The notes under the pieces were generated by a model, which made no database searches, was not told the origin of the DNA, and worked only from the letters and a program-made list of their open reading frames with translations. A program made the position numbers and the translations under genes. From UHGV virus genome UHGV-0038496: a stretch of 64,000 bases of DNA, one strand, 5' to 3'. The DNA comes from a virus. How positions within the stretch are numbered: the first letter of the stretch is position 1; each line of letters starts with the position of its first letter. Shown piece by piece: positions 696 to 64,000 of this stretch.

Positions 696-1049
696 TCAAT
701 GGCATTCGCCCCACGAGTATCCCACCAGACCTTCACCTGAGATTTGGAAAGGTGCCTTCATGATGCGAGCTGCTTGGTGGAAGCACTTAACAACCATTTC
801 ACCAACCTTGCAATGAATCAACTGGCATTTGCCGTTTTCGTTTATGATTGGATCATACACGGTTTTACCGTTGCTGTCAACTACTTCTTCACCATTTTCA
901 TCTTTACGGGCTTTTTTGTATTTGTTGCCAGTAAAGATACGACCTTTTGCTTCCTCCTCTGCTTTGAATTTTTCCAGTTCTTCCAGAGTATCAAACTCAT
1001 AAACGGTCTTAAACATGCCGTTATCTGGAATTTCATACTGATATTCATC
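696..1049 (-). CDS. DNA polymerase, family A, exon 2 (C-terminal 117 aa)
   Basis: Reading frame opens after an in-frame stop at about 1125 and ends ...VGYSWGECH, like family A polymerase C-termini (T7 ...NWAICH, E. coli Pol I ...WDQAH, from memory); joining it to exon 1 gives LLVH|DEYQYEI, restoring motif C (HDE). The ORF track calls it as a separate GTG-initiated 118-aa ORF. Confidence 0.65.
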   Translation of the reverse strand, partial: DEYQYEIPDNGMFKTVYEFDTLEELEKFKAEEEAKGRIFTGNKYKKARKDENGEEVVDSNGKTVYDPIINENGKCQLIHCKVGEMVVKCFHQAARIMKAPFQISGEGLVGYSWGECH

Positions 1050-1971
1050 CACATGTTCAAGGAGTTCGTTACGCTCCCCCGCACCTTTACGTGCAAAGCC
1101 ACAAGATTTCTCCTGTGGGTCGGACTATCTCACGTTCCTAGATCAGCCACAGGAACCCTCCCATTTCGACCGCACTTGCTGGCCTACTCTACTCGCTTCT
1201 TCACATCAACCTGTGTTGACGCTATGCTTTCGATAGTCTCTGAACGCGACTACCAGGTGTAGTTTTTAGAGATGTGTTTCCACTGCCTTCTTTGCTTTAT
1301 GGCTCTGACTGTTCCATAAGGATACCCAAGATCCCTAATCTCGCACTGTCTCATACCACTTTGCAACAGTTCACAAATCTCTATCACCTCAGCTTCTGTT
1401 AGCACAGCGTTAGCGTTATACTCGCCTACTGGCCTAACTCTGAGGTCATTATCATAAGCGTGTTTGATATTTTTGCCTTGAGTTGTCCACTCCAGATTCC
1501 AGTATGCATTGTTGTACTTATTCCCATCTTTATGGTTCACATAGGTGAATTTTTCAGGATCAGGATTCGGTACAAAGCATTCAGCAACCAAGCGGTGAAC
1601 ACCTTTTGTACACTGCTTCCCATCAATGAACATGATTACGCAAAGGTAACCTCTACCGTTATCAAAACTGAACATTGTTGTGTGATCACGTTTAGATAAA
1701 GGTATTGTTCCGTCATCAAACACAGTGTATCCATGATAATCAAATGATCTAGCCATTTTAACTACACCTCTTTAGTCTTCGCTGCGGGTTGGCATATTGA
1801 GTTTTACCACATTTTGGCATAAAAGTCAACTTAGCGTTCCCGTCAATTAAAGAGGTTATTCGACATAGATTACTCTATGAAGCCACAATGATGTTTATGG
1901 TAATAGATGATTCTTCTGACACCTAGGTCATACCAAGTTTTATTATCTATTTTCAAGGTCATCAGGTTGCG
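1050..1971 (-). mobile_element. group I intron (about 0.92 kb) in the DNA polymerase gene, carrying an HNH ORF
   Basis: Conserved core elements read on the minus strand in canonical order: P-like AATTGACGGGAACGC (rc of 1834-1848), Q-like AACCCGCAGC (rc of 1781-1790), R-like GTTCAGAGACTATCG (rc of 1231-1245), S-like GAGATAGTCCGAC (rc of 1119-1131). Upstream exon ends in U (CAT), intron ends in G (GTG). Boundaries are predicted, not folded. Confidence 0.7.
1250..1756 (-). CDS. intron-encoded HNH homing endonuclease
   Basis: 168 aa with HNH_3-type motif VHRLVAECF...VNHKDGNKYNN..NLEW.T...N.KHA and a C-terminal HTH-like tail; RBS GAGGTG upstream; lies between the Q and R elements of the intron. 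Confidence 0.8.
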   Translation of the reverse strand: MARSFDYHGYTVFDDGTIPLSKRDHTTMFSFDNGRGYLCVIMFIDGKQCTKGVHRLVAECFVPNPDPEKFTYVNHKDGNKYNNAYWNLEWTTQGKNIKHAYDNDLRVRPVGEYNANAVLTEAEVIEICELLQSGMRQCEIRDLGYPYGTVRAIKQRRQWKHISKNYTW

Positions 1972-4329
1972 ATGAACCAATAAGCCTACCAGATCACACA
2001 ATGAAGCACCACCATTCTGCTGATATGCATTCAGCAAGGAGTGTTTAGAGCGTGTCCAGATGGCATGACCATCGAAAGCATAGATAAATTTCTTACCTGT
2101 CGCCTCCCAGAATTTCTCAAGTGCCTCTTTACGACCTTTCAGGCCGAAGTTGGTATCCCAGAATGCGTCAATTACTTGCTGACCAACCTCTGGCACAACG
2201 TCAAGCATATCCGCTACTTTATCCTTTTGAGCACCATACATCACGCCATAAGTGATTGGCTTACCATCACCACGGGAAACCTCTCTGCCCACAACTTTAG
2301 AGTAGGCTTTGGCGTTCAAAGCATGTGCGTCCCCTTCGCTTATGATCCTGTAATACGCCCCGTTGTCGAAATCGTAAGCACCCCATGCACCTATCAGCTG
2401 TTCAAGGTTGGAACCATCAACACCCAACTGATACTTACCTGGAGCAGGTTTCCAGAGACTACGCATCTCTTTACCCAGCACAACCTTTGGTGAAGGTTTA
2501 GGCTGGTTGGCACATATTTTATGTTTCTGTCGTCCGGTAGCAGTCAAACCGGAGCTTTCTGCTGGTAAGCGGTGATCGATCTGCAATCTCGGATGATTCA
2601 ACAATCCAGTATCAACCTTATCCTCTTTGATTGGGTCGAGTACTGACCTACGGTTACGCAATGACAGCCAGAACACAATGTCTTTTGCCATCTCTCCTTG
2701 CAATCTTGCCAGATTAGGACACAAATGCCCGAAGCTATCTTTCAGCTGTGGGGATGTTGGTAGCCCTCTGGCTTTACGCCGGAACTTGGCGAACACCTCC
2801 TGTTCAACCCTGGGGGAGTTCTTACGACTCATGAACTTCGCTTCTGAAATTTTGAATCGCGCATCCCTGTTCAGTTCACGAATGATCAGGGTACGATACT
2901 CGGATGTTTCCAGTTCATCCATGTACTCCCTTACTTTAGCATCAATTTCAGCATCCGGCAACTGTTTTTTGTGGTAGTCACGGGTTAAATCTTTCGTTCT
3001 CCACATTGTTGGTTGCCAGCCTACAGAGATCAGATAACGCTTGATATCCATCTGGTTATTCATTCTCATGGGCACCATGCAATCAGGCATTTTCTTATCC
3101 TGCAAATCCTTAATTGCCTGCTGCATCAAATCATCCGGCAGAGGTTTAGGTGCTTCCTCTGACCGTGCTGCCCTCAGAAAGTCTGCCTGTTTTTCAGGAT
3201 CAGTGCAACCTCTTTCCTCACACCATTTAACACCTGTAGCACTAACACTCCCATCTTTGTTGAAAGCCCGTTTAGGTGCAGGTTTGAAGTCAAAAGCTGC
3301 TTCATTAACCGGATACCCAAGTTTGTTCTTCAACCAGCTGTAGCCGTGTGAAGAGATACTACCATCTGTATTGAACGGTTTCTGTGGGAACTTAGGCTTC
3401 TGGGCCTCTGAAATTTCTTTCAGTGGCAGCTGTGGTTCCACACGATCAGCGATCTCTTTCATCATGTCATCGCATTTCTGACGTAAAGCTATCGCCCCAT
3501 CAATATCAAAGTAAACACCTTGTCTTGCTTGTAAGCCCATCAAGAAGTGCTGGAGCATACCACGACGCAGAGCATACTTCCAAGTGATTTGTTTGAATCC
3601 GCTGGGTTTCTCTTTGTCTGGATCATACATAAAGTTTTGCATGTCAGATTTGCCGTAGAATGTCCCTTTGGACTCGGCGATCAGTTCGTCCCAGAGCAAT
3701 TCCTGAATGATAACGTCTTCCCATACACGGTCTACGTATTTCCAGAGTGGAAGATTGCGCCAGTCATCAATCTTAACTTTCTGGTTGCCAAGTGCATAGC
3801 CCCAAGCCATCAACCCATGTGGACCTACAGCTTGACTTTTCTTAGTTACCGGATTGAATACCGCCTCTGGACAACCTTTCGGTAACGGGCGATCAGGCCA
3901 CAATATACGACTCATCGGCAAAGTATCAAACAGGTTAACCCTGTGACCGTTGATGGTCCCCATGCAATCTTTATCTTCGAACAGGTCGAAATGAATGCCT
4001 GATAATTTTTCAAATAGGATAAAATCGTAGTCAAAACAGTTGTGACCCACTAAAGCGGTTGGCGACCAATCAGAATGTCCTGTCAGCCACTCTTCCATAT
4101 ACCCAAAGTCAGCAACCCGCACCTGACAGTTTTTGTAAACTGTTTGTTTATTGAGAGCGAATTGTTTCGCTGTTTCTACATCTTCCTCGGAGTAATGAGT
4201 CCTGTCGTTTAGCGGCAGGAATAGTATGAAGTTGTTTTTATGATGTTGTTTGTACAATGTGCAATGATAGTAGAGGTCTTTTTCATCAAGCAACCCACTA
4301 CTTTCTGCGTCAAAAGCCCACAATGCCAT
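1972..4329 (-). CDS. DNA polymerase, family A (T7-like), exon 1 with 3'-5' exonuclease domain
   Basis: N-terminal exo motifs FDAESSGL and HNCFDYD; polymerase motif A VDGSNLEQLIGAW (T7 VDASGLELR); motif B R..GK.ITYGVMYG; the track ORF runs 34 codons into the intron to a stop at 1870 with no HDE motif; RBS AAGGAG before the ATG at 4329. Confidence 0.85.
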
Positions 4330-52938: not shown

Positions 52939-52954
52939 GTTACATAAAAGAAAA

Positions 52955-52971
52955 GGGGCCGCGAAGGCCCC
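52955..52971 (-). terminator. rho-independent terminator after the tape measure gene
   Basis: GGGGCC-GCGAA-GGCCCC hairpin followed on the minus strand by TTTTCTTTTATG. Confidence 0.7.
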
Positions 52972-52979
52972 TTGAAAGG

Positions 52980-54088
52980 TTAGTTAGTAGGACTTGCAAA
53001 CAGGTTAATATCTTTCCAATTTTCCCATTCAAATCTTGCATCCAGCATTTCTTCGAACTGAGCAGCGTCAAACTCGATTGTAATTTTACCCTCACCAACT
53101 TCCAGAGGAATTGGAGGAATTTCGAAGGATGGTAACGGATCCAAAGGTGTACTTGGAGTTGGATTAGCTCTGTAGGTAATCGGGTTAAGCATACGGTAAT
53201 CCAGGCCAAGGAAAGATGAAATGCCGTTAACACCATCGACAAGCCACTGCGGATGTTTGGTCACGTCAGTTTCCTGGTGGTAGTTTTGCATCCAATCATC
53301 CAACATACCAGCACCTTCGTACCCCATGTAGCCCAGAGCTAATGGTCCTTTCCATTTCCACAGTCCACCAAGTAACCGTGCAAACAATCCTTTCTTAGCC
53401 ATGGCTGCTGCACCACCCGCAGCTGCACCACCTGCGGCGGCACCACCGAGAGCACCTGCAACACCTCCGGCAGCTTTAATCATACCCAGGGTTGCGGCAA
53501 CAGCTTTGACGATTCTCAGCAATTTCCATACGGCGTTAACAACAACTAAGATGGAGAAAGCATAGCCTACCCATTTAGCTTTGCTGAATGTTTCATCAAC
53601 AGTGTCACTTGTATCTTTGACTTCTTTTTTCAGCAGACCAAAGTGGTCTTTGACTTGCAACCACCAGATACGGATACTGACAATCGTGTTGTTCAATTCA
53701 CCAACAATGTCGTTCAGACCCTGGATAAATCCAGATACAAACTCACCAGCCTGCATGATCATTGGGGTGAATGTTTCTCCTGTGCGGATCAGGGTGTAAT
53801 AAAACTCGGTGAGTTCATCTGACCATGTGGTGAACAGTTTTTGTTTAGTCAATTCGATGAAAGTTTTCAAACGGTTTTCAGCCAGAACGTTAGATTTCTG
53901 CATACGTTCATAACCAGCAGCTGACGCTTCGTTCATGTACTTAGCAACGTATTTCATCATTTTGGCTGTTTTGACCTGGCCTTTCTGCATCATGTCCATG
54001 AATTGTTCCATAGACAGCTCAGACAGGTTGAAAGCCTCTTTTGTTGCTTTAATGAACGGCTCGTAAGCACCTGGCATTGCTTCAGCTA
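52980..54088 (-). CDS. tail tape measure protein, exon 2
   Basis: Track ORF is TTG-initiated with an in-frame stop just upstream at 54108-54110; contains a Gly/Ala-rich hydrophobic segment (GGVAGALGGAAAGGAAAGGAAAMAKKG) typical of tape measure proteins; predicted 3' splice site after G at 54089. Confidence 0.6.
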
Positions 54089-54917
54089 CCAATGTCCAGA
54101 CAGTTCGCTACGCTGTCCCGGTGTGCTAAGACACCCGCCACACATTTCTGTGTGGAGCAGACTATATCTTCTCTGGATAACCAGAGCCAACCATTTCAGA
54201 GGCGCTTGCCTCTTACACCGCTACACTCATCACGGTTAGTCGTTGAGCACATAACTTATAAATCTTTCAGCAGTTTAGACCATGCTTTCTTAGTCTTGAT
54301 TCGAACAATTGCTGATCTGCAAGCACCAAATTCTTCCATCAAATCTGTTGTATTCTCAAACCGCCTGTTATAAATTTCGATAACCTCTTCTGCTGTGAGC
54401 TTATGATTGGCATTTGACTCACCAGAGGCATCATTCAGGCCATTTGCAAAAGCATGTTTCTGATTGCCAGATCGAGTAACATACTCCAGATTATCTTTAT
54501 GGTTGTTTGCTTTATTACCGTCCTTATGGTTAACTTCCATCCCAGGTTGTGGAGGTTCACCAAGGAAAGTAAGGGCAACTATTCTGTGAACAAGATACAA
54601 CACACATTTGCCGTTTACCCGAAAGTAAACGCGTTTGTAACCATTGTGTATTGTCTGCTCAGTCAACTGCTTCCGTGTGTTTCTTCTTGTAGAGAATATT
54701 GCACCGTCCTCTCTACAGAAGTACCCATCGTGACCAGGAACTGGTCGGATTTCTAAGTTACTTCGCTGCGGATTATCCATTGTTACATCCTCCAAACTTT
54801 TTACCATACCCCGAGTAGTTACTTCGGGCCATAAACATGTTACCACATTTATTTGGTATTTGGAAGGCTTTAGGAGCTTCCCGCAATTAGGTTGGTTTTA
54901 TAACAGCTAGTATGTCA
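54089..54917 (-). mobile_element. group I intron (about 0.83 kb) in the tape measure gene, carrying an HNH ORF
   Basis: Read on the minus strand: P-like AATTGCGGGAAGC (rc of 54876-54888), Q AATCCGCAGC (rc of 54765-54774), R-like TCAACGACTAA (rc of 54236-54246), S AAGATATAGTCT (rc of 54159-54170). Candidate P1: exon AACAGU pairs with intron GCUGUU, with U-G at the splice site. Intron 3' end GGACAUUGG is homologous to the polymerase intron 3' end GAACAUGUG. Boundaries predicted only. Confidence 0.65.
54256..54780 (-). CDS. intron-encoded HNH homing endonuclease (paralogue of the 1250..1756 product)
   Basis: HNH_3 motif VHRIVALTF...VNHKDGNKANNHKDNLEYVT...NQKHA; shared LTAEEVIEI block; start taken as ATG at 54778-54780 with RBS GGAGGA (track ORF extends upstream to 54846). 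Confidence 0.8.
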   Translation of the reverse strand: MDNPQRSNLEIRPVPGHDGYFCREDGAIFSTRRNTRKQLTEQTIHNGYKRVYFRVNGKCVLYLVHRIVALTFLGEPPQPGMEVNHKDGNKANNHKDNLEYVTRSGNQKHAFANGLNDASGESNANHKLTAEEVIEIYNRRFENTTDLMEEFGACRSAIVRIKTKKAWSKLLKDL

Positions 54918-56142
54918 ACTGTTGTTTTAGTTCCTCAGACATTACCTGTCCTTTACCAAGCATTTGCTGTATCGCCATAATACCACGCTGATATTTTACT
55001 TCATCAGCACCATATGACGCAGCATATTGCGAATAAGCAGAGAACAGATCACGGACTTCCTGCCCTGTCATTTGGTTTTTGGCGTTTACTGCCATTTGAG
55101 AGTAGCCTTGCAGACCTGATTTCAGGTCGAAGCCTAATCTCATAGCTTCACCTTGTACGAATGCAACTTCCGAGTTAGCTTTCGTAGGATCACCCATAAC
55201 GTTGGTAAGAGCAGCACTCGCACCTTCCATCATGTGACCGGATTTGTTAACACTGACAATTGCAGAGAATGCGGTGTACGCTTTAGTCAAATCCATGACT
55301 GTTGTTCTTAATTTATTAAAAGCGGTGCTCAGAGTCATGGTTCCAGCAGCAGCATTAGCAAACCCCTTCTGCATTGCAGCGATCTGGGCGTTGAAAGTTG
55401 ACTTACCTATCAACCCTTTTGCATATTGCTGTTCAACCTGACGGTAGCCACCTAACATATCCCTAAAATTAGCCCCATAACGAGCTGTCAGACGCGTTGA
55501 CATGTTGGTAAGGTGTGTTAGCCTATCCATACCCACATTATTGCGTTTGGGCGTTCCTGAGCTGCCATTTTGCTTGTGCCATCTGTTCATTGCAGCAGTC
55601 TGGGCACGAACAAGTGCTGGGTTGGAAGCTACACCACCCATGTTGGGGTTACCTGGGATATATCTGAAGGTATTTGCTCTGGACAGAGCACGGGGTGAGA
55701 CTGGTTTGTTGGAGAAGTAGGAACTACCTAAGCCACCACTTTTCTTAGCCAGTTTGGATTGTTCCTGATAGAATTTACGCATTCTCACCAATTCAGGATC
55801 TTTGGCAGTCATCTGACCGACAACCTGTTTCCTTCTGGCGTTCTCACGTTTTTCTATCGCAGATCGTACAGCAGCTTCACGTTTAGCCTGGGATACAGCT
55901 TCCTGATGCATACGGCGTTGCTGTTGCAACTGTTTATTCTGTACCCTCTGAACAATCTGACCAGTCTTCTCCATCGATGCTTGCCAGGCTTTCAGAGGAT
56001 TCCCCTTTCCCAAAGAATCGCCCAGCTTTGTAAACTCCCTGCCTAATCCTTTAATTCTTTCAATAGCTTTTTTATAGCTATTGTTATCGATCTCAAATGT
56101 AATTCGGTTTGTGGTTGTGGCAACCACTTTGTTACCAGCCAT
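54918..56142 (-). CDS. tail tape measure protein, exon 1
   Basis: Long alpha-helical, Q/A/K-rich N-terminal region; RBS AGGAGAG before ATG at 56142; the track ORF continues three codons into the intron to a TAG at 54907. Confidence 0.6.
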
Positions 56143-56457: not shown

Positions 56458-56922
56458 TTATTCCTGAGTTTCCTGGTCCAGACTGTTGATCTGATGCGCC
56501 ATTTGCAATCCCTGCAACATCGCCATCAGGCCGTCTAAACCTTCTTGCGTGAAAAAAGATCCGTAGTTAACCTCCAGCACTTTACCAGCCAGTTTGAGCA
56601 TTGCAAACAGGTTGCCAGCGAAGAGTGCATCTATGTCTACTTTATCCACGCCATCAACGACAACATCTGCGAACAGGATATCGAACAGTTCGTCAATCGA
56701 TTTATCGTCAAGTTGTTCGAATAAGTACACCAGTGCGGTTGGTAACACTTCTGCGAGGTTTTTACCACCGTTCAACAATTCACCACCAATGGCTCCCATC
56801 GGCACTGCAATAATCCTGCCAATTTTAGGAAGGTTATGCATTGCCTGGCGTGGTCCCCAGTGATTTATAATGAAGTTGTGTCCGACTAAATCTATTTCTG
56901 TAGTAGGTCTGAAGTTTGGCAT
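56458..56922 (-). CDS. putative tail assembly chaperone
   Basis: 154-aa ORF in the position typical of tail chaperones, upstream of tape measure; RBS AAGGG. Confidence 0.35.
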   Translation of the reverse strand: MPNFRPTTEIDLVGHNFIINHWGPRQAMHNLPKIGRIIAVPMGAIGGELLNGGKNLAEVLPTALVYLFEQLDDKSIDELFDILFADVVVDGVDKVDIDALFAGNLFAMLKLAGKVLEVNYGSFFTQEGLDGLMAMLQGLQMAHQINSLDQETQE

Positions 56923-57008: not shown

Positions 57009-57026
57009 AAGCCTCCGAAGAGGCTT
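57009..57026 (-). terminator. rho-independent terminator overlapping the nuclease stop codon
   Basis: AAGCCTC-CGAA-GAGGCTT hairpin followed on the minus strand by TTTCTGTTTG. Confidence 0.55.
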
Positions 57027-58563
57027 ATAACCACTTAGCTCTCCATACCCATTTAATCTTACCACTATCCCACAACCGGATAGCCCCAACCAAATCTTCT
57101 ATCTCCCGCTCTGTACGAGGATCAATAGACTTATCTGGGTTGAAGTCTACATCAGATCTGCCAATCTCCTCCAGACGTTTAGGAATCAATCGACGTTGCC
57201 AGTGTGGTTTCGGACGCAAACCATTAGCAGGGTGGAATACTCTGTAGTCAGGTTTGCCATACGTTTCAGCAACAAATCCCAACACTTCATAAACCCCACC
57301 AGCGAAGTAGTCATTCATACTGAATGAACTAACCTCTTCTGGATTATTCTCCCTGATAAACGTTTTAAACAGTCTAGATGCCCCACCACGAACAGAACAG
57401 CTTGATGCAAATCTTGATAACTCCCATGTTGCCTTAGTCGTACCGTTAGCTCTGGCCTGACCTCTCGTAGTTTTACCGTAGCCGAAGCTCATGATTGCTA
57501 CAATTTCACCTTCTTTCGTTTTCAGAGCCAGATTGATAGGGTTAGGAGAATGGCCCTGCGGGTGGTAAGCGTCGTAAAACTCTTTGCACTCTATTGATTT
57601 TAGATGCACAACTTCACACTCCCTGGCATTTACTTTACGCTCACCATTACACCCCAAAGCATGAGCCAGCAACTGGCTGAACACTTTCTGGTTGTTATCC
57701 CAATCATAGTCCGTGATCTGGATCAGGCGAATACCTTTCTCTTTACAGGCTAACCACTTGTTGTAATGGTAGTCTTTAGACTTATGATTATCACCATGCC
57801 AGAAGACACCGTTAACTTCAATCGCCACACGTTTTGATGGGACAAAGATATCTAACTCTTTGCCATCATCCAAGATAGTGCGGTTAGACTGCTCCGCGTC
57901 TGGACAGATAGATTTTACAAAGTCAAAGACAGATCCTTCCACTTTAGAAGTCAATTTTGCACAATGCCTGCACCCATGACCTCTGTGAATGTGTTCTTTC
58001 ACAGGCTGTTGGAACTCTGATCCACATTTTGTGCATTCAATATTGAGAATGCCTTTCTTCCTTTCATCATAAAACATACTTTTGTAAACGTATTTATCTT
58101 TGTGGACCTCTTTAGCTTGTTCCACAACTTCTTCAAAAGAGTTTCTGCTTTTTCTACCACGAGTCATGTTAGCACAACGAGGGCAGCCCTGTCCTCTCAA
58201 ATGTTTGCTAGGTTTTTGTGAGAACACGCCGTGGTCAGGGCAAATAATGTTCACATTTGTCACTCTATCTTTATACACAACCTCAGAGTAATCGTAACGA
58301 TCACCATGTTTTTCTTTGGCCTTTTCGATAAATTCTTCCCTGTTTCCACGTTTACGCTCAAGGTAACATTCTTTGCACCCCTCCCCTTTTCTGTGAGCAT
58401 TCGCTTCTACCGAAAACACGCCATGTTTTTTGCAAATAATGTTAACTTTTTCTCTGCTACCTTTGTACTCAGTTTGACTGTAATCATACATTTCTTCAAA
58501 CTCAGGGTTTTCTTTGAAGACGGCTGTTAGCCATTCTTCTTTTGTATAACCTTTTCCAGCCAT
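57025..58563 (-). CDS. putative homing-type endonuclease: three tandem zinc-ribbon-like repeats plus Vsr-like PD-(D/E)xK nuclease domain
   Basis: Three roughly 45-aa repeats (Y.YS...Y......NIICP.HGVF......H..G.GC..C); nuclease-like block DIFVPSKRVAIEVNGVFWHGDNH resembling the FVDGCFWHGH core of Vsr (from memory); start set at ATG 58561-58563 (MAGKGYTKEEW...) with RBS AGGAG. Confidence 0.65.
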   Translation of the reverse strand: MAGKGYTKEEWLTAVFKENPEFEEMYDYSQTEYKGSREKVNIICKKHGVFSVEANAHRKGEGCKECYLERKRGNREEFIEKAKEKHGDRYDYSEVVYKDRVTNVNIICPDHGVFSQKPSKHLRGQGCPRCANMTRGRKSRNSFEEVVEQAKEVHKDKYVYKSMFYDERKKGILNIECTKCGSEFQQPVKEHIHRGHGCRHCAKLTSKVEGSVFDFVKSICPDAEQSNRTILDDGKELDIFVPSKRVAIEVNGVFWHGDNHKSKDYHYNKWLACKEKGIRLIQITDYDWDNNQKVFSQLLAHALGCNGERKVNARECEVVHLKSIECKEFYDAYHPQGHSPNPINLALKTKEGEIVAIMSFGYGKTTRGQARANGTTKATWELSRFASSCSVRGGASRLFKTFIRENNPEEVSSFSMNDYFAGGVYEVLGFVAETYGKPDYRVFHPANGLRPKPHWQRRLIPKRLEEIGRSDVDFNPDKSIDPRTEREIEDLVGAIRLWDSGKIKWVWRAKWL

Positions 58564-58596
58564 CGAAAAACTCCTAGTAGTTTTAAACACAGGGGA

Positions 58597-58626
58597 ACTA
58601 TACCACAAAACATTAGCTTTTGTCAA
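58597..58626 (-). promoter_or_regulatory. sigma70-like promoter with extended -10 (TTGACA, 18-nt spacer, TGG-TATAGT)
   Basis: Read on the minus strand: TTGACA (rc of 58621-58626), 18 nt, GTGGTATAGT (TATAGT = rc of 58597-58602); about 30 nt upstream of the nuclease RBS. Confidence 0.55.
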
Positions 58627-58668: not shown

Positions 58669-59142
58669 TTAAATGATACCAGTTAAACCTGCAAGTCCCA
58701 TCATTGCAGATTCAATGTTATCTTTGTTCAACCAGCAATCCAGTACGCCGATTTCCCAGTCCAGTTGTGCAACTTCTGTACCGTAGGTCAGGTCAGGTTG
58801 CTTCTGGATCCAACCGATTGTGGAAATACCAGGACCCTGGCTACCTTCCAGCAGAACAGGGAAGAATACAAGCCCTGTGATAGATGCTTGTTTCTGCCAG
58901 TCTGACAGGTAGGCGTTCCATGCTGCTGTGTTCTGGAGAGATACAGTCATTACACCAGATTGGTTACGGGATAATGCTGCACTCATTTCACCATCCACGC
59001 CTACATGCGGGTAGATGTTATCTTCGTTACGAGAGACAACGATTTTGGTGTCTGCCGCAAAACCTGATACACGCTGACCCATCAAATAAAGTTTTACTTT
59101 TTTCGGGTCATATGCATAGGGTGTTAAAATATCTGTGACCAT
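58669..59142 (-). CDS. putative tail tube protein
   Basis: 157-aa ORF immediately downstream of the sheath gene, with RBS AGGAGGG; gene order sheath-tube typical of contractile tails. Confidence 0.55.
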   Translation of the reverse strand: MVTDILTPYAYDPKKVKLYLMGQRVSGFAADTKIVVSRNEDNIYPHVGVDGEMSAALSRNQSGVMTVSLQNTAAWNAYLSDWQKQASITGLVFFPVLLEGSQGPGISTIGWIQKQPDLTYGTEVAQLDWEIGVLDCWLNKDNIESAMMGLAGLTGII

Positions 59143-63548: not shown

Positions 63549-63602
63549 AACACCCCCTATCTCATTTCAAAGAAAGTATAACACAACTGAATATAAAAAT
63601 AA

Positions 63603-63630
63603 AGCCCCAGACCCGAAAAGGTGTGGGGCT
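63603..63630 (-). terminator. rho-independent terminator
   Basis: AGCCCCA...TGGGGCT hairpin followed on the minus strand by TTTATTTTTATAT; downstream of the partial gene at 63653..64000. Confidence 0.6.
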
Positions 63631-63652
63631 AGTAGTGGTGTAATTTTTAATT

Positions 63653-64000
63653 TTACGCTCTAAGAGCTGCTTCGAAATCTTTCATCATGTTGGCGAAAGT
63701 TTTATTTCGAGCTAAGCTCACACCGTATTGTTTAGCGAATGCTTCAAGAGCCACTTTAGAGCCACTCTTGTCTGCTTCGTCTTCTAAAGCAGCAGCTTGC
63801 TGTAGGATGGCATCGACGCTATCGGGAGCAGCTTCTTCCATACTCATTGTCATTATAGCTGGCTCCGCATCCTGTGATTCAGCAGGCGCTGGAGTTTCAG
63901 TTTCACCACTGTCTTCTACAGGCGGTTCAGGTTCTTTCGGTTGTTCCGGTTCTGGCTCAGGATCAGGCTCTGGCGCTGCTGTAGAGATCAGACCTAAATT
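63653..64000 (-). CDS. hypothetical structural protein, partial (N-terminus beyond the window end)
   Basis: Continuous minus-strand reading frame from the window edge through a Pro/Glu-rich segment (PEPDPEPEPEQPKEPEPP) into the 66-aa track ORF ending ...FEAALRA. Confidence 0.45.
   Translation of the reverse strand, partial: NLGLISTAAPEPDPEPEPEQPKEPEPPVEDSGETETPAPAESQDAEPAIMTMSMEEAAPDSVDAILQQAAALEDEADKSGSKVALEAFAKQYGVSLARNKTFANMMKDFEAALRA

Follow-up and report, generated by a model that had tools for sequence, protein, structure and literature searches.

Why does the tape measure protein (TMP) gene of the virus genome UHGV-0038496 read as two open reading frames (ORFs) with an endonuclease gene between them? 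The window analysed here is a stretch of 64,000 nucleotides (nt) of this genome, to which all positions refer, and both the gene and the element that interrupts it lie on its minus strand. There, the ORFs 54907..56142 (411 amino acids, aa) and 52980..54092 (370 aa) bracket an HNH-domain ORF in the ORF list. The original prediction had taken both outer ORFs for tape measure sequence interrupted by a group I intron, and our analysis arrives at the same answer: the segment 54917..54089 is very probably a mobile group I intron inside the TMP gene of an uncultivated rV5-like (Vequintavirinae-related) myovirus.

The outer ORFs match one and the same tape measure profile of 800 positions, phrog_5255, with 54907..56142 aligning to positions 1-431 (E 1.8e-138) and 52980..54092 to positions 430-795 (E 2.6e-88); the former also contains the Pfam domain TMP_3. 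Because they cover complementary parts of the profile, they are halves of one TMP gene and not paralogues, and their identification as tape measure sequence was thus correct. Excision of 54917..54089, with G54089 as the 3' terminal base of the intron, would join U54918 to U54088-A54087 and give a TMP of 777 aa, in which T + TA forms a leucine codon. The predicted ligated exon DNA reads ...AAACAACAGT up to the junction and TAGCTGAAGC... after it. The corresponding protein reads ...SEELKQQLAEAMPGAYEP..., around ...EELKQQ-L-AEA..., with ...EELKQQLAEAMPG... as the predicted stretch over the junction and ELKQQLAEAMPGAYEPFIK and QQLAEAMPGAYEPFIK as junction-spanning peptides. Only the boundaries 54917..54089 satisfy the rule of a U before the intron and a G at its end together with the reading frame and the residue count of the homologues.

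These homologues provide the most direct evidence for the junction. According to tblastn, rV5-like phages (Vequintavirus) encode the TMP as a single unbroken gene, and the spliced product is 56-57% identical to the 778-aa TMP of Escherichia phage EduardKellenberger, without a gap across ...MSEELKQQLAEA(M/L)PGAYEPF... (at the junction, MSEELKQQLAEAMPGAYEPF versus MSEELKQQLAEALPGAYEPF). Closer relatives were available on contigs drawn from IMG/VR and Logan (L002-L005 and L020). The TMP gene is unbroken in L002 (92% aa identity) and L020 (76%), where exactly the 829-nt segment is missing and the L002 site reads ...AAACAGCAATTGGCTGAGGCA..., while L003, L004 and L005 (TMPs 96-97% identical) carry an insert at the same nucleotide as UHGV-0038496. 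The intron is thus polymorphic in presence and absence among related TMP genes, the nearest intron-less allele being that at 92% aa identity. At the site, intron-less DNA reads CAA-TTG-GCT, CAG-CTG-GCA or CAG-CTT-GCT versus CAG-T(intron)TA-GCT in the intron-bearing genes, and all of these encode leucine. In the protein and DNA alignments with EduardKellenberger and L002, precise removal of the intron restores an unbroken host gene, and the predicted junction reproduces the sequence of the relatives without a gap. Two ancestrally separate genes, which would have spoken against an intron, are not the case here, as the close relatives L002 and L020 have the gene unbroken.

Public gene calls divide the gene into two or three proteins treated as unrelated, as had been anticipated for a gene interrupted in this way. 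The first half appears with 411/414 aa under the name 'tail tape measure' or 'hypothetical protein', the second with 370-381 aa and without a family, and the endonuclease as an HNH protein. Such records, for example the 414-aa 'MAG TPA: tail tape measure' DAE88285.1 and the ENA and Logan calls of 432 + 174 + 375-381 aa, would also be expected of a TMP gene that is split without splicing, in which an HNH gene and degenerate intron remnants separate two halves (411 and about 365 aa) that are translated apart and assembled later. The NrdA of Aeromonas phage Aeh1 is reportedly split by mobE with its halves expressed as separate polypeptides, and the same is said to be suspected for one gene of Pectobacterium phage CB7. 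The reading frame of exon 1 ends at a stop three codons beyond the splice site, which would suit separate translation, and HNH interruptions without splicing are documented (PMC7344957). Against separate translation, no Shine-Dalgarno sequence was seen, reading from the sequence, before the exon 2 start candidates UUG 54092 and AUG 54078..54076, and a consensus scan found no minus-strand terminator-like site between the exons but a strong one after the TMP stop. Further, the boundaries follow the U...G rule and give back exactly the number of residues in unbroken homologues, which is not expected of a gene simply split in two. As a separate matter, an intron-internal promoter for exon 2 was considered and rejected: only 9/12 consensus matches turned up, and the ten promoter-like sites in the region scanned, against a shuffle mean of five, included none that was strong.

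An intron that splices itself should carry a complete ribozyme, and the elements of the conserved group I core are all present. P, Q, R and S follow one another in order, P3 and P7 would form the pseudoknot, and the pairs of P3, P4, P7 and P8 are all canonical (Table 1). The sequences and the order of the four elements, the 6-base-pair P1 with its U·G pair, the terminal G and the exon phase (U + UA = Leu) had all been proposed from the first reading of the DNA, and each is there to the base; an in-frame TAG stop lies inside the P1 loop (54909..54907). A group I-consistent fold had also been anticipated. When the ORF loop was replaced by GAAA, the unconstrained minimum-energy fold of the ORF-deleted intron recovered P3, P4, P5, P5a-c, P6/P6a, P7.1, P7.2, P8, P9 and P9.1, with a fold energy at z = -4.9 relative to shuffles. 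P7.1 and P7.2 stand between the P7 5' strand and the P3 3' strand, as in IA2 introns, and these hairpins are common to the nrdD introns of phage JSE and Felix O1-like phages. Because of P7.1/P7.2, the lack of a P2 and the likeness to nrdD introns, we place the intron with phage introns of the sunY/nrdD-like type, which we take to be subgroup IA2. Two other kinds of insert were considered and rejected: an intein, since the insert has stops in the TMP frame from three codons in, and a group II intron, for which neither a reverse transcriptase nor a group II match was found.

Comparison of intron copies adds evidence that the RNA fold is maintained. Five versions of the TMP intron were recovered (UHGV-0038496, L005, L003, L004 and the sequence common to the contigs L013-L019, whose TMP is more distant), and they are 95-100% identical outside a few segments, which are whole helices. 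In L003 and L004, P8 is swapped from CUCUGG-UUAU-CCAGAG to CAUAAUC-UUUUC-GAUUAUG, a 7-base-pair hairpin, and P7.2 is rebuilt with two added hairpins in a 29-nt insertion (about 5925..5985 of L003), with 96-100% identity elsewhere in the intron and in the HNH gene; this pattern suggests recombination between introns. In L013, P5b changes from UACC/GGUA to UACU/AGUA, the first P5c hairpin from AUAAAUGUG/CAUGUUUAU to ACCAUUGUG/CAUGGUGGU and the second from CCCGA/UCGGG to GAAGG/CCUUC. Single changes keep pairing as well, for example a C-G to U·G change in P9 of L005. Across the TMP-intron and nrdD versions there are 2-4 distinct forms of P3, P4, P5b, both P5c hairpins, P7.1, P7.2, P8, P9, P9.1 and P9.2, all fully canonical. 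All listed helix versions of equal length, including those of P1, P6a and P7, are likewise fully canonical; the bulged P5a was left out of the scoring. The peripheral replacements preserve pairing and therefore point to selection on the RNA fold. Between contigs, the ribozyme parts are 96-100% identical within a type (94-100% between copies) and the endonuclease ORF 96-98%, as opposed to 80-94% for the flanking exons. The ORF is intact in all five variants with 22 of its 36 variable sites at third codon positions, and by this reading of the sequences its substitutions are mostly synonymous. An intact, consensus-matching core, peripheral helices replaced with their pairing kept and ribozyme parts better conserved than the exons are hard to reconcile with degenerate remnants, and we consider a TMP gene split without splicing to be very unlikely.

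Several observations nevertheless weigh against a splicing group I intron. The Rfam family Intron_gpI (RF00028) has a curated gathering threshold of 50 bits, and a gathering-threshold Rfam scan of the whole window returned no match. With permissive settings, no Rfam family other than Intron_gpI matches the locus significantly; its match scores 24.8 bits (E 7.7e-4), in an alignment that puts the 3' half wrongly inside the ORF. Taken alone, the 3' half of the intron scores 28.3 bits (E 9.2e-6; P7, the 41-nt insertion, P3', P8, J8/7 and P9 aligned) and the 5' half 20.1 bits (E 2.7e-3; P1, P3, P4, P5 and Q aligned), each below the threshold. The expected covariance-model match is thus found on the minus strand, at a score that falls short of the curated cut-off. 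Beyond the scores, P10 is short, with just 3 readable pairs. The HNH ORF overlaps core strands, its first codons covering the P5 3' strand, Q/P4' and the P6/P6a 5' strands and its stop lying inside the P6a 3' strand, and its translation might interfere with ribozyme folding. The excess of intron over exon identity could in part reflect constraint rather than recent transfer. The helix strands were assigned by hand from printed sequences, with no automated covariation statistic, because MAFFT misaligned the swapped P8 helix, and the comparison draws on a small sample of about 5 intron variants and 2 nrdD relatives. Finally, splicing is here a prediction from sequence.

The low score, the short P10 and the overlapping ORF would suit a decaying intron, that is, a ribozyme that once spliced and now needs a host or phage factor, or a TMP that is effectively a pseudogene in a defective genome. 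However, at least 12 independent contigs (UHGV-0038496, L003-L005, L013-L019) of up to about 140 kb have intact and conserved TMP exons, and the changes in the endonuclease are of the mostly synonymous kind described above. The shortfall in score is explained by the 525-nt ORF in P6a and the 41-nt P7.1/P7.2 insertion, both of which are penalised, and not by loss of the core; added together, the halves reach 48 bits, although the P3 and P6 pairs bridging them are then left out of the count. As an ORF-bearing intron is poorly modelled, we do not take the missed threshold as a refutation. Among the positive controls, a Felix O1-like nrdD intron that has no ORF exceeds the cut-off with 55.7 bits. 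A Bacillus terL intron similar to the 5' arm of the present intron reaches 44.7 bits and the TMP intron as found in L003 reaches 35.5 bits, and the intron-less L002 gives no Intron_gpI match. Decay is in our judgement the least probable account of the locus, and we retain an intact, mobile group I intron as the reading of 54917..54089. A match to the Mahella-1 family (18 bits, E 0.13-0.97) and other weak Rfam matches were dismissed as chance.

The protein encoded in the P6a loop is an HNH endonuclease. It matches Pfam HNH_3 at 50 bits (cut-off 24.8), phrog_59 at E 2.7e-43 and I-HmuI (PDB 1U3E) at E 7e-13 over residues 10-158, nearly its full length. The HNH ORF reported between the TMP halves is present, but its listed GTG start at 54846 is likely wrong: translation most likely begins at ATG 54780, eight bases past GGAGGA. 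The Shine-Dalgarno sequence GGAGG of this gene is part of the P5a 3' strand (54796..54789), so that the folded ribozyme would hide its ribosome site. Control of intron ORFs is known in T4, and by analogy the ribozyme fold may mask the Shine-Dalgarno sequence here. At 90% identity, the endonuclease falls in a cluster of 76 members, and one sequence occurs on 30 contigs. By comparison with I-HmuI, the protein may cut or nick intron-less TMP genes of co-infecting phages.

Taken together, the features suggest the following course of events, for which we infer co-transcription, catalysis and the activity and target of the endonuclease. Exon 1, intron and exon 2 would be transcribed as one late mRNA, in which the intron RNA would fold into its P3-P9 core and the guide GCUGUU would pair with the exon end AACAGU. 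A free guanosine would then attack after U54918, and the freed end of exon 1 would attack after the terminal G54089, joining U to UA, so that the ligated mRNA would encode the 777-aa TMP. By analogy with I-HmuI, the HNH enzyme would cut or nick an intron-less TMP gene, and repair from an intron-bearing copy would insert the intron (homing).

The distribution of the intron is in keeping with mobility. Exon 1 of L003 is 97.6% identical to that of the intron-less L002, and the presence of the intron does not track exon relatedness. Further, at the homologous codon of a TMP that is only 33% identical to that of UHGV-0038496, L013-L019 have an intron 95.3% identical to the present one; near the site, the two lineages have in common only ...AAACAACAGT before the junction and TAGC.GAAGCA... 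after it. In one of these sequences, the ENA scaffold L017, a run of Ns directly follows the intron and is itself followed by repeated TMP exon 1 sequence (about 2230..2320), a repeat that looks like an assembly artefact rather than biology. The TMP intron was found in no sequenced isolate genome of a collection of 50,697 phage records: the only megablast match of the locus in these records was to Vequintavirus TMP genes, at 78% identity over 11% of the query, and in a sensitive blastn search of the intron no record covered more than 17% of it. Exact-pattern scans of IMG/VR with two intron motifs returned only three contigs, all previously retrieved.

Introns in tape measure genes are already known. 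The original prediction had described an intron in a tail structural gene as uncommon, which was overstated, as TMP genes are a documented intron target (PMC10448857, PMC2504315) and the TMP is a frequently interrupted gene according to Barth et al. 2023 (PMC10448857). In Vibrio phage ICP1, the TMP gene consists of four exons and three group I introns, with splicing shown by RNA-seq and reverse-transcription PCR (RT-PCR), and a gene for an HNH-3 homing endonuclease lies in the middle one (PMC10448857). ICP1 has an rV5-like tail module with a homologous TMP, of which the C-terminal ORF79 is annotated as similar to the C-terminus of rv5_gp049. ICP1 exon 1 ends in ...NQVMA and exon 4 starts with EVMPNAM, compared with GQVMS-EELKQQ before and LAEA-MPGAY after the UHGV-0038496 site, which places the three ICP1 introns in the conserved motif that is interrupted here, within roughly 10 codons that contain this site. 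The Intron_gpI scores in the ICP1 TMP region are 77.9, 38.9 and 28.9 bits, and the third ICP1 intron has the P9.2 loop GUAGCGAA and the GAACA...G 3' end in common with the UHGV-0038496 intron and the nrdD introns. The two systems differ in the number of introns (three introns and four exons versus one intron) and in the length of the endonuclease (240 versus 174 aa), and by our reading the insertion points lie anywhere from a few nucleotides to a few codons apart, with the mini-exon boundaries of ICP1 deduced from sequence. A local blastn of the UHGV-0038496 intron against the ICP1 TMP region found no nucleotide similarity.

We are evenly divided on a broader interpretation of this coincidence, namely that the motif GKGQ(V/I)..EELKQQLAEA.PG of rV5/ICP1-type TMPs attracts group I introns in general, and that the present intron is now spreading between phage lineages whose TMPs are 33% identical while swapping peripheral helices (P5b/c, P7.2, P8) with other phage introns, its 5' arm being like that of Bacillus terL introns and its 3' core like that of enterobacterial nrdD introns. 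If true, the intron would mark co-infection between distant phages in the community and would illustrate how ribozymes evolve by modules in nature.

Other known introns resemble parts of the element. In prophages of the Bacillus cereus group, IA1/IA2 introns occur at three TMP sites and one in the tail tube gene (PMC2504315, Tourasse and Kolsto 2008). Like the UHGV-0038496 intron, they occupy conserved sites, are polymorphic in presence and absence, include the IA2 class and have a variable periphery round a conserved core, and they show homology to introns of phages from Gram-positive and Gram-negative hosts. However, their hosts are temperate siphovirus prophages of Gram-positive bacteria with an unrelated TMP of >1200 aa, and in several of these introns the endonuclease gene is incomplete or missing. 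The nrdD introns of Felix O1-like phages and JSE, of the T4 sunY/nrdD type, are about 78-80% identical in nucleotide sequence over P7-P7.1-P7.2-P3'-P8-J8/7 and arrange their helices in the same order, with P3, P7.1, P7.2, P8, P9, P9.1 and P9.2 differing by compensatory changes; in JSE the endonuclease ORF stands ahead of P7, as in the TMP intron. They differ in their host gene, an anaerobic ribonucleotide reductase, in P1 and in a compact P4-P5 5' domain, whereas the 5' domain of the TMP intron is an extended P5abc-like arm like that of the terL introns of Bacillus Herelleviridae phages (72% identity). Among the Felix O1-like phages, Salmonella phage D1-2 (MN481367; L010, about 1337..1660) has an ORF-less nrdD group I intron scoring 55.7 bits. 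The MN481367 record annotates nrdD only as a misc_feature 'similar to' nrdD, and the 2010 Felix O1 genome paper reported no introns.

I-HmuI, the HNH nicking enzyme of the SPO1 DNA polymerase intron, is likewise intron-encoded and 174 aa long, and the motif HKDGNKxNNxxxNLxxVT is conserved between the two proteins, whose overall similarity is low; the predicted target of the UHGV-0038496 enzyme is the TMP gene, in contrast to the DNA polymerase gene of the I-HmuI intron. Phage CB7, of the genus Certrevirus in the Vequintavirinae, to which the UHGV-0038496 phage is related, has many HNH genes and five or six HNH introns, most of which splice according to RT-PCR (PMC7344957). These lie in terL, DNA polymerase, nrdA/B and a phosphoribosyl transferase gene, and none is reported in the TMP gene (PMC7344957). 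Cluster J mycobacteriophages also splice introns in capsid and tail genes (PMC3706429). In the literature, we found no report of the present intron or of TMP introns in relatives of rV5-like coliphages.

The mechanism is not new: TMP introns with HNH genes have been published, splicing was shown for the TMP introns of ICP1, and TMP introns are also described from B. cereus prophages. What the locus adds is an uncultivated rV5-like lineage among the phages with mobile introns in tail genes, and a comparative set for homing range and ribozyme modularity, with intron-bearing and intron-less alleles at 92% identity, a host gene at 33% and swaps of whole helices. Its value to specialists may lie in the spread into this distant host gene, in helix swaps within otherwise near-identical copies and in the coincidence with the ICP1 hotspot. 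Additionally, recognising the intron restores a single 777-aa TMP, and this length is the relevant one for predicting tail length.

Table 1 Features of the interrupted TMP gene and its predicted intron, in the order of transcription.
Feature	Positions	Strand	Description and basis
TMP exon 1	54918..56142	minus	1225 nt; last base U54918 is the first base of the Leu codon that splicing would complete
Group I intron (very probable)	54089..54917	minus	829 nt; nrdD/sunY-like IA2 type with P7.1/P7.2 and no P2; Rfam, fold, intron-less alleles
P1	54902..54923	minus	exon AACAGU 54923..54918 and guide GCUGUU 54907..54902; 6/6 canonical pairs, U54918·G54907 at the 5' splice site
P3 5' strand CCAACC	54895..54890	minus	pairs with GGUUGG 54192..54187
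P element / P4 5' strand AATTGCGGGAAG	54888..54877	minus	checked to the base, Rfam-aligned
P5 extension	54789..54867	minus	P5a CCUUCCAAA / UUUGGAGG, P5b and two hairpins; minimum-energy fold
HNH endonuclease gene	54256..54780	minus	174 aa + stop; in the P6a loop; listed ORF 54256..54846
Q element / P4 3' strand AATCCGCAGC	54774..54765	minus	checked to the base, Rfam-aligned
R element TCAACGACTAA	54246..54236	minus	J6/7 and P7 5' strand GACUA; aligned to the Rfam consensus
P7.1 (ACCG...CGGU) and P7.2 (AGAGGC AAGC GCCUCU)	54198..54236	minus	peripheral hairpins between P7 and P3'
P3 3' strand GGUUGG and P8 hairpin CUCUGG UUAU CCAGAG	within 54159..54192	minus	Rfam alignment, fold
S element AAGATATAGTCT (also given as AAGAUAUAGUCU)	54170..54159	minus	J8/7 and P7 3' strand; checked to the base
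P9, P9.1, P9.2 and 3' terminal G54089	54089..54155	minus	Rfam alignment, pairing check
TMP exon 2	52980..54088	minus	1109 nt including the TAA stop; first bases UA complete the Leu codon
Terminator-like hairpin and T run	52953..52973	minus	just 3' of the TMP stop; consensus scan only

A second group I intron with an HNH gene is probable elsewhere in the window, in the family A DNA polymerase gene at 696..4329 on the minus strand (intron about 1053..1893), which again resembles CB7. The gene is read as an 819-aa ORF (1870..4329) that weakly matches DNA_pol_A and a 118-aa ORF (696..1052) that forms its continuation; the insert holds a 168-aa HNH_3 ORF (1250..1756) whose protein is 37% identical to the HNH protein of the TMP intron. 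Intron_gpI matches at 1588..1906 with 24.8 bits (E 6.5e-4), and P (AAUUGACGGGAAC), Q (AACCCGCAGC), R (GUUCAGAGACUA), an S-like element (GUGAGAUAGUCC) and a P9.2 of the TMP-intron family can be read. A weak match to the Rfam family isrL at 63598..63676 on the minus strand (27.1 bits versus a cut-off of 35, E 7.8e-4, 79 nt of a 345-position model) is probably due to chance.

The neighbours of the TMP gene form a myovirus tail module of sheath-like and tube-like proteins, tail assembly chaperone, TMP, tube initiator and baseplate hub. A free-standing endonuclease gene of 533 aa (57025..58626, minus strand) lies in this module between the tail tube gene (58669..59142) and the chaperone gene (56458..56922), and its product matches phrog_559 'HNH endonuclease' (E 2.9e-103), phrog_3339 'homing endonuclease' (E 1.1e-70) and the Pfam zinc-finger domain DUF4379. 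The same slot is only a 163-nt gap in EduardKellenberger and holds different large ORFs in L002 (635 aa), L005 (511 aa) and L020 (631 aa), so that the position looks like a variable homing-endonuclease slot.

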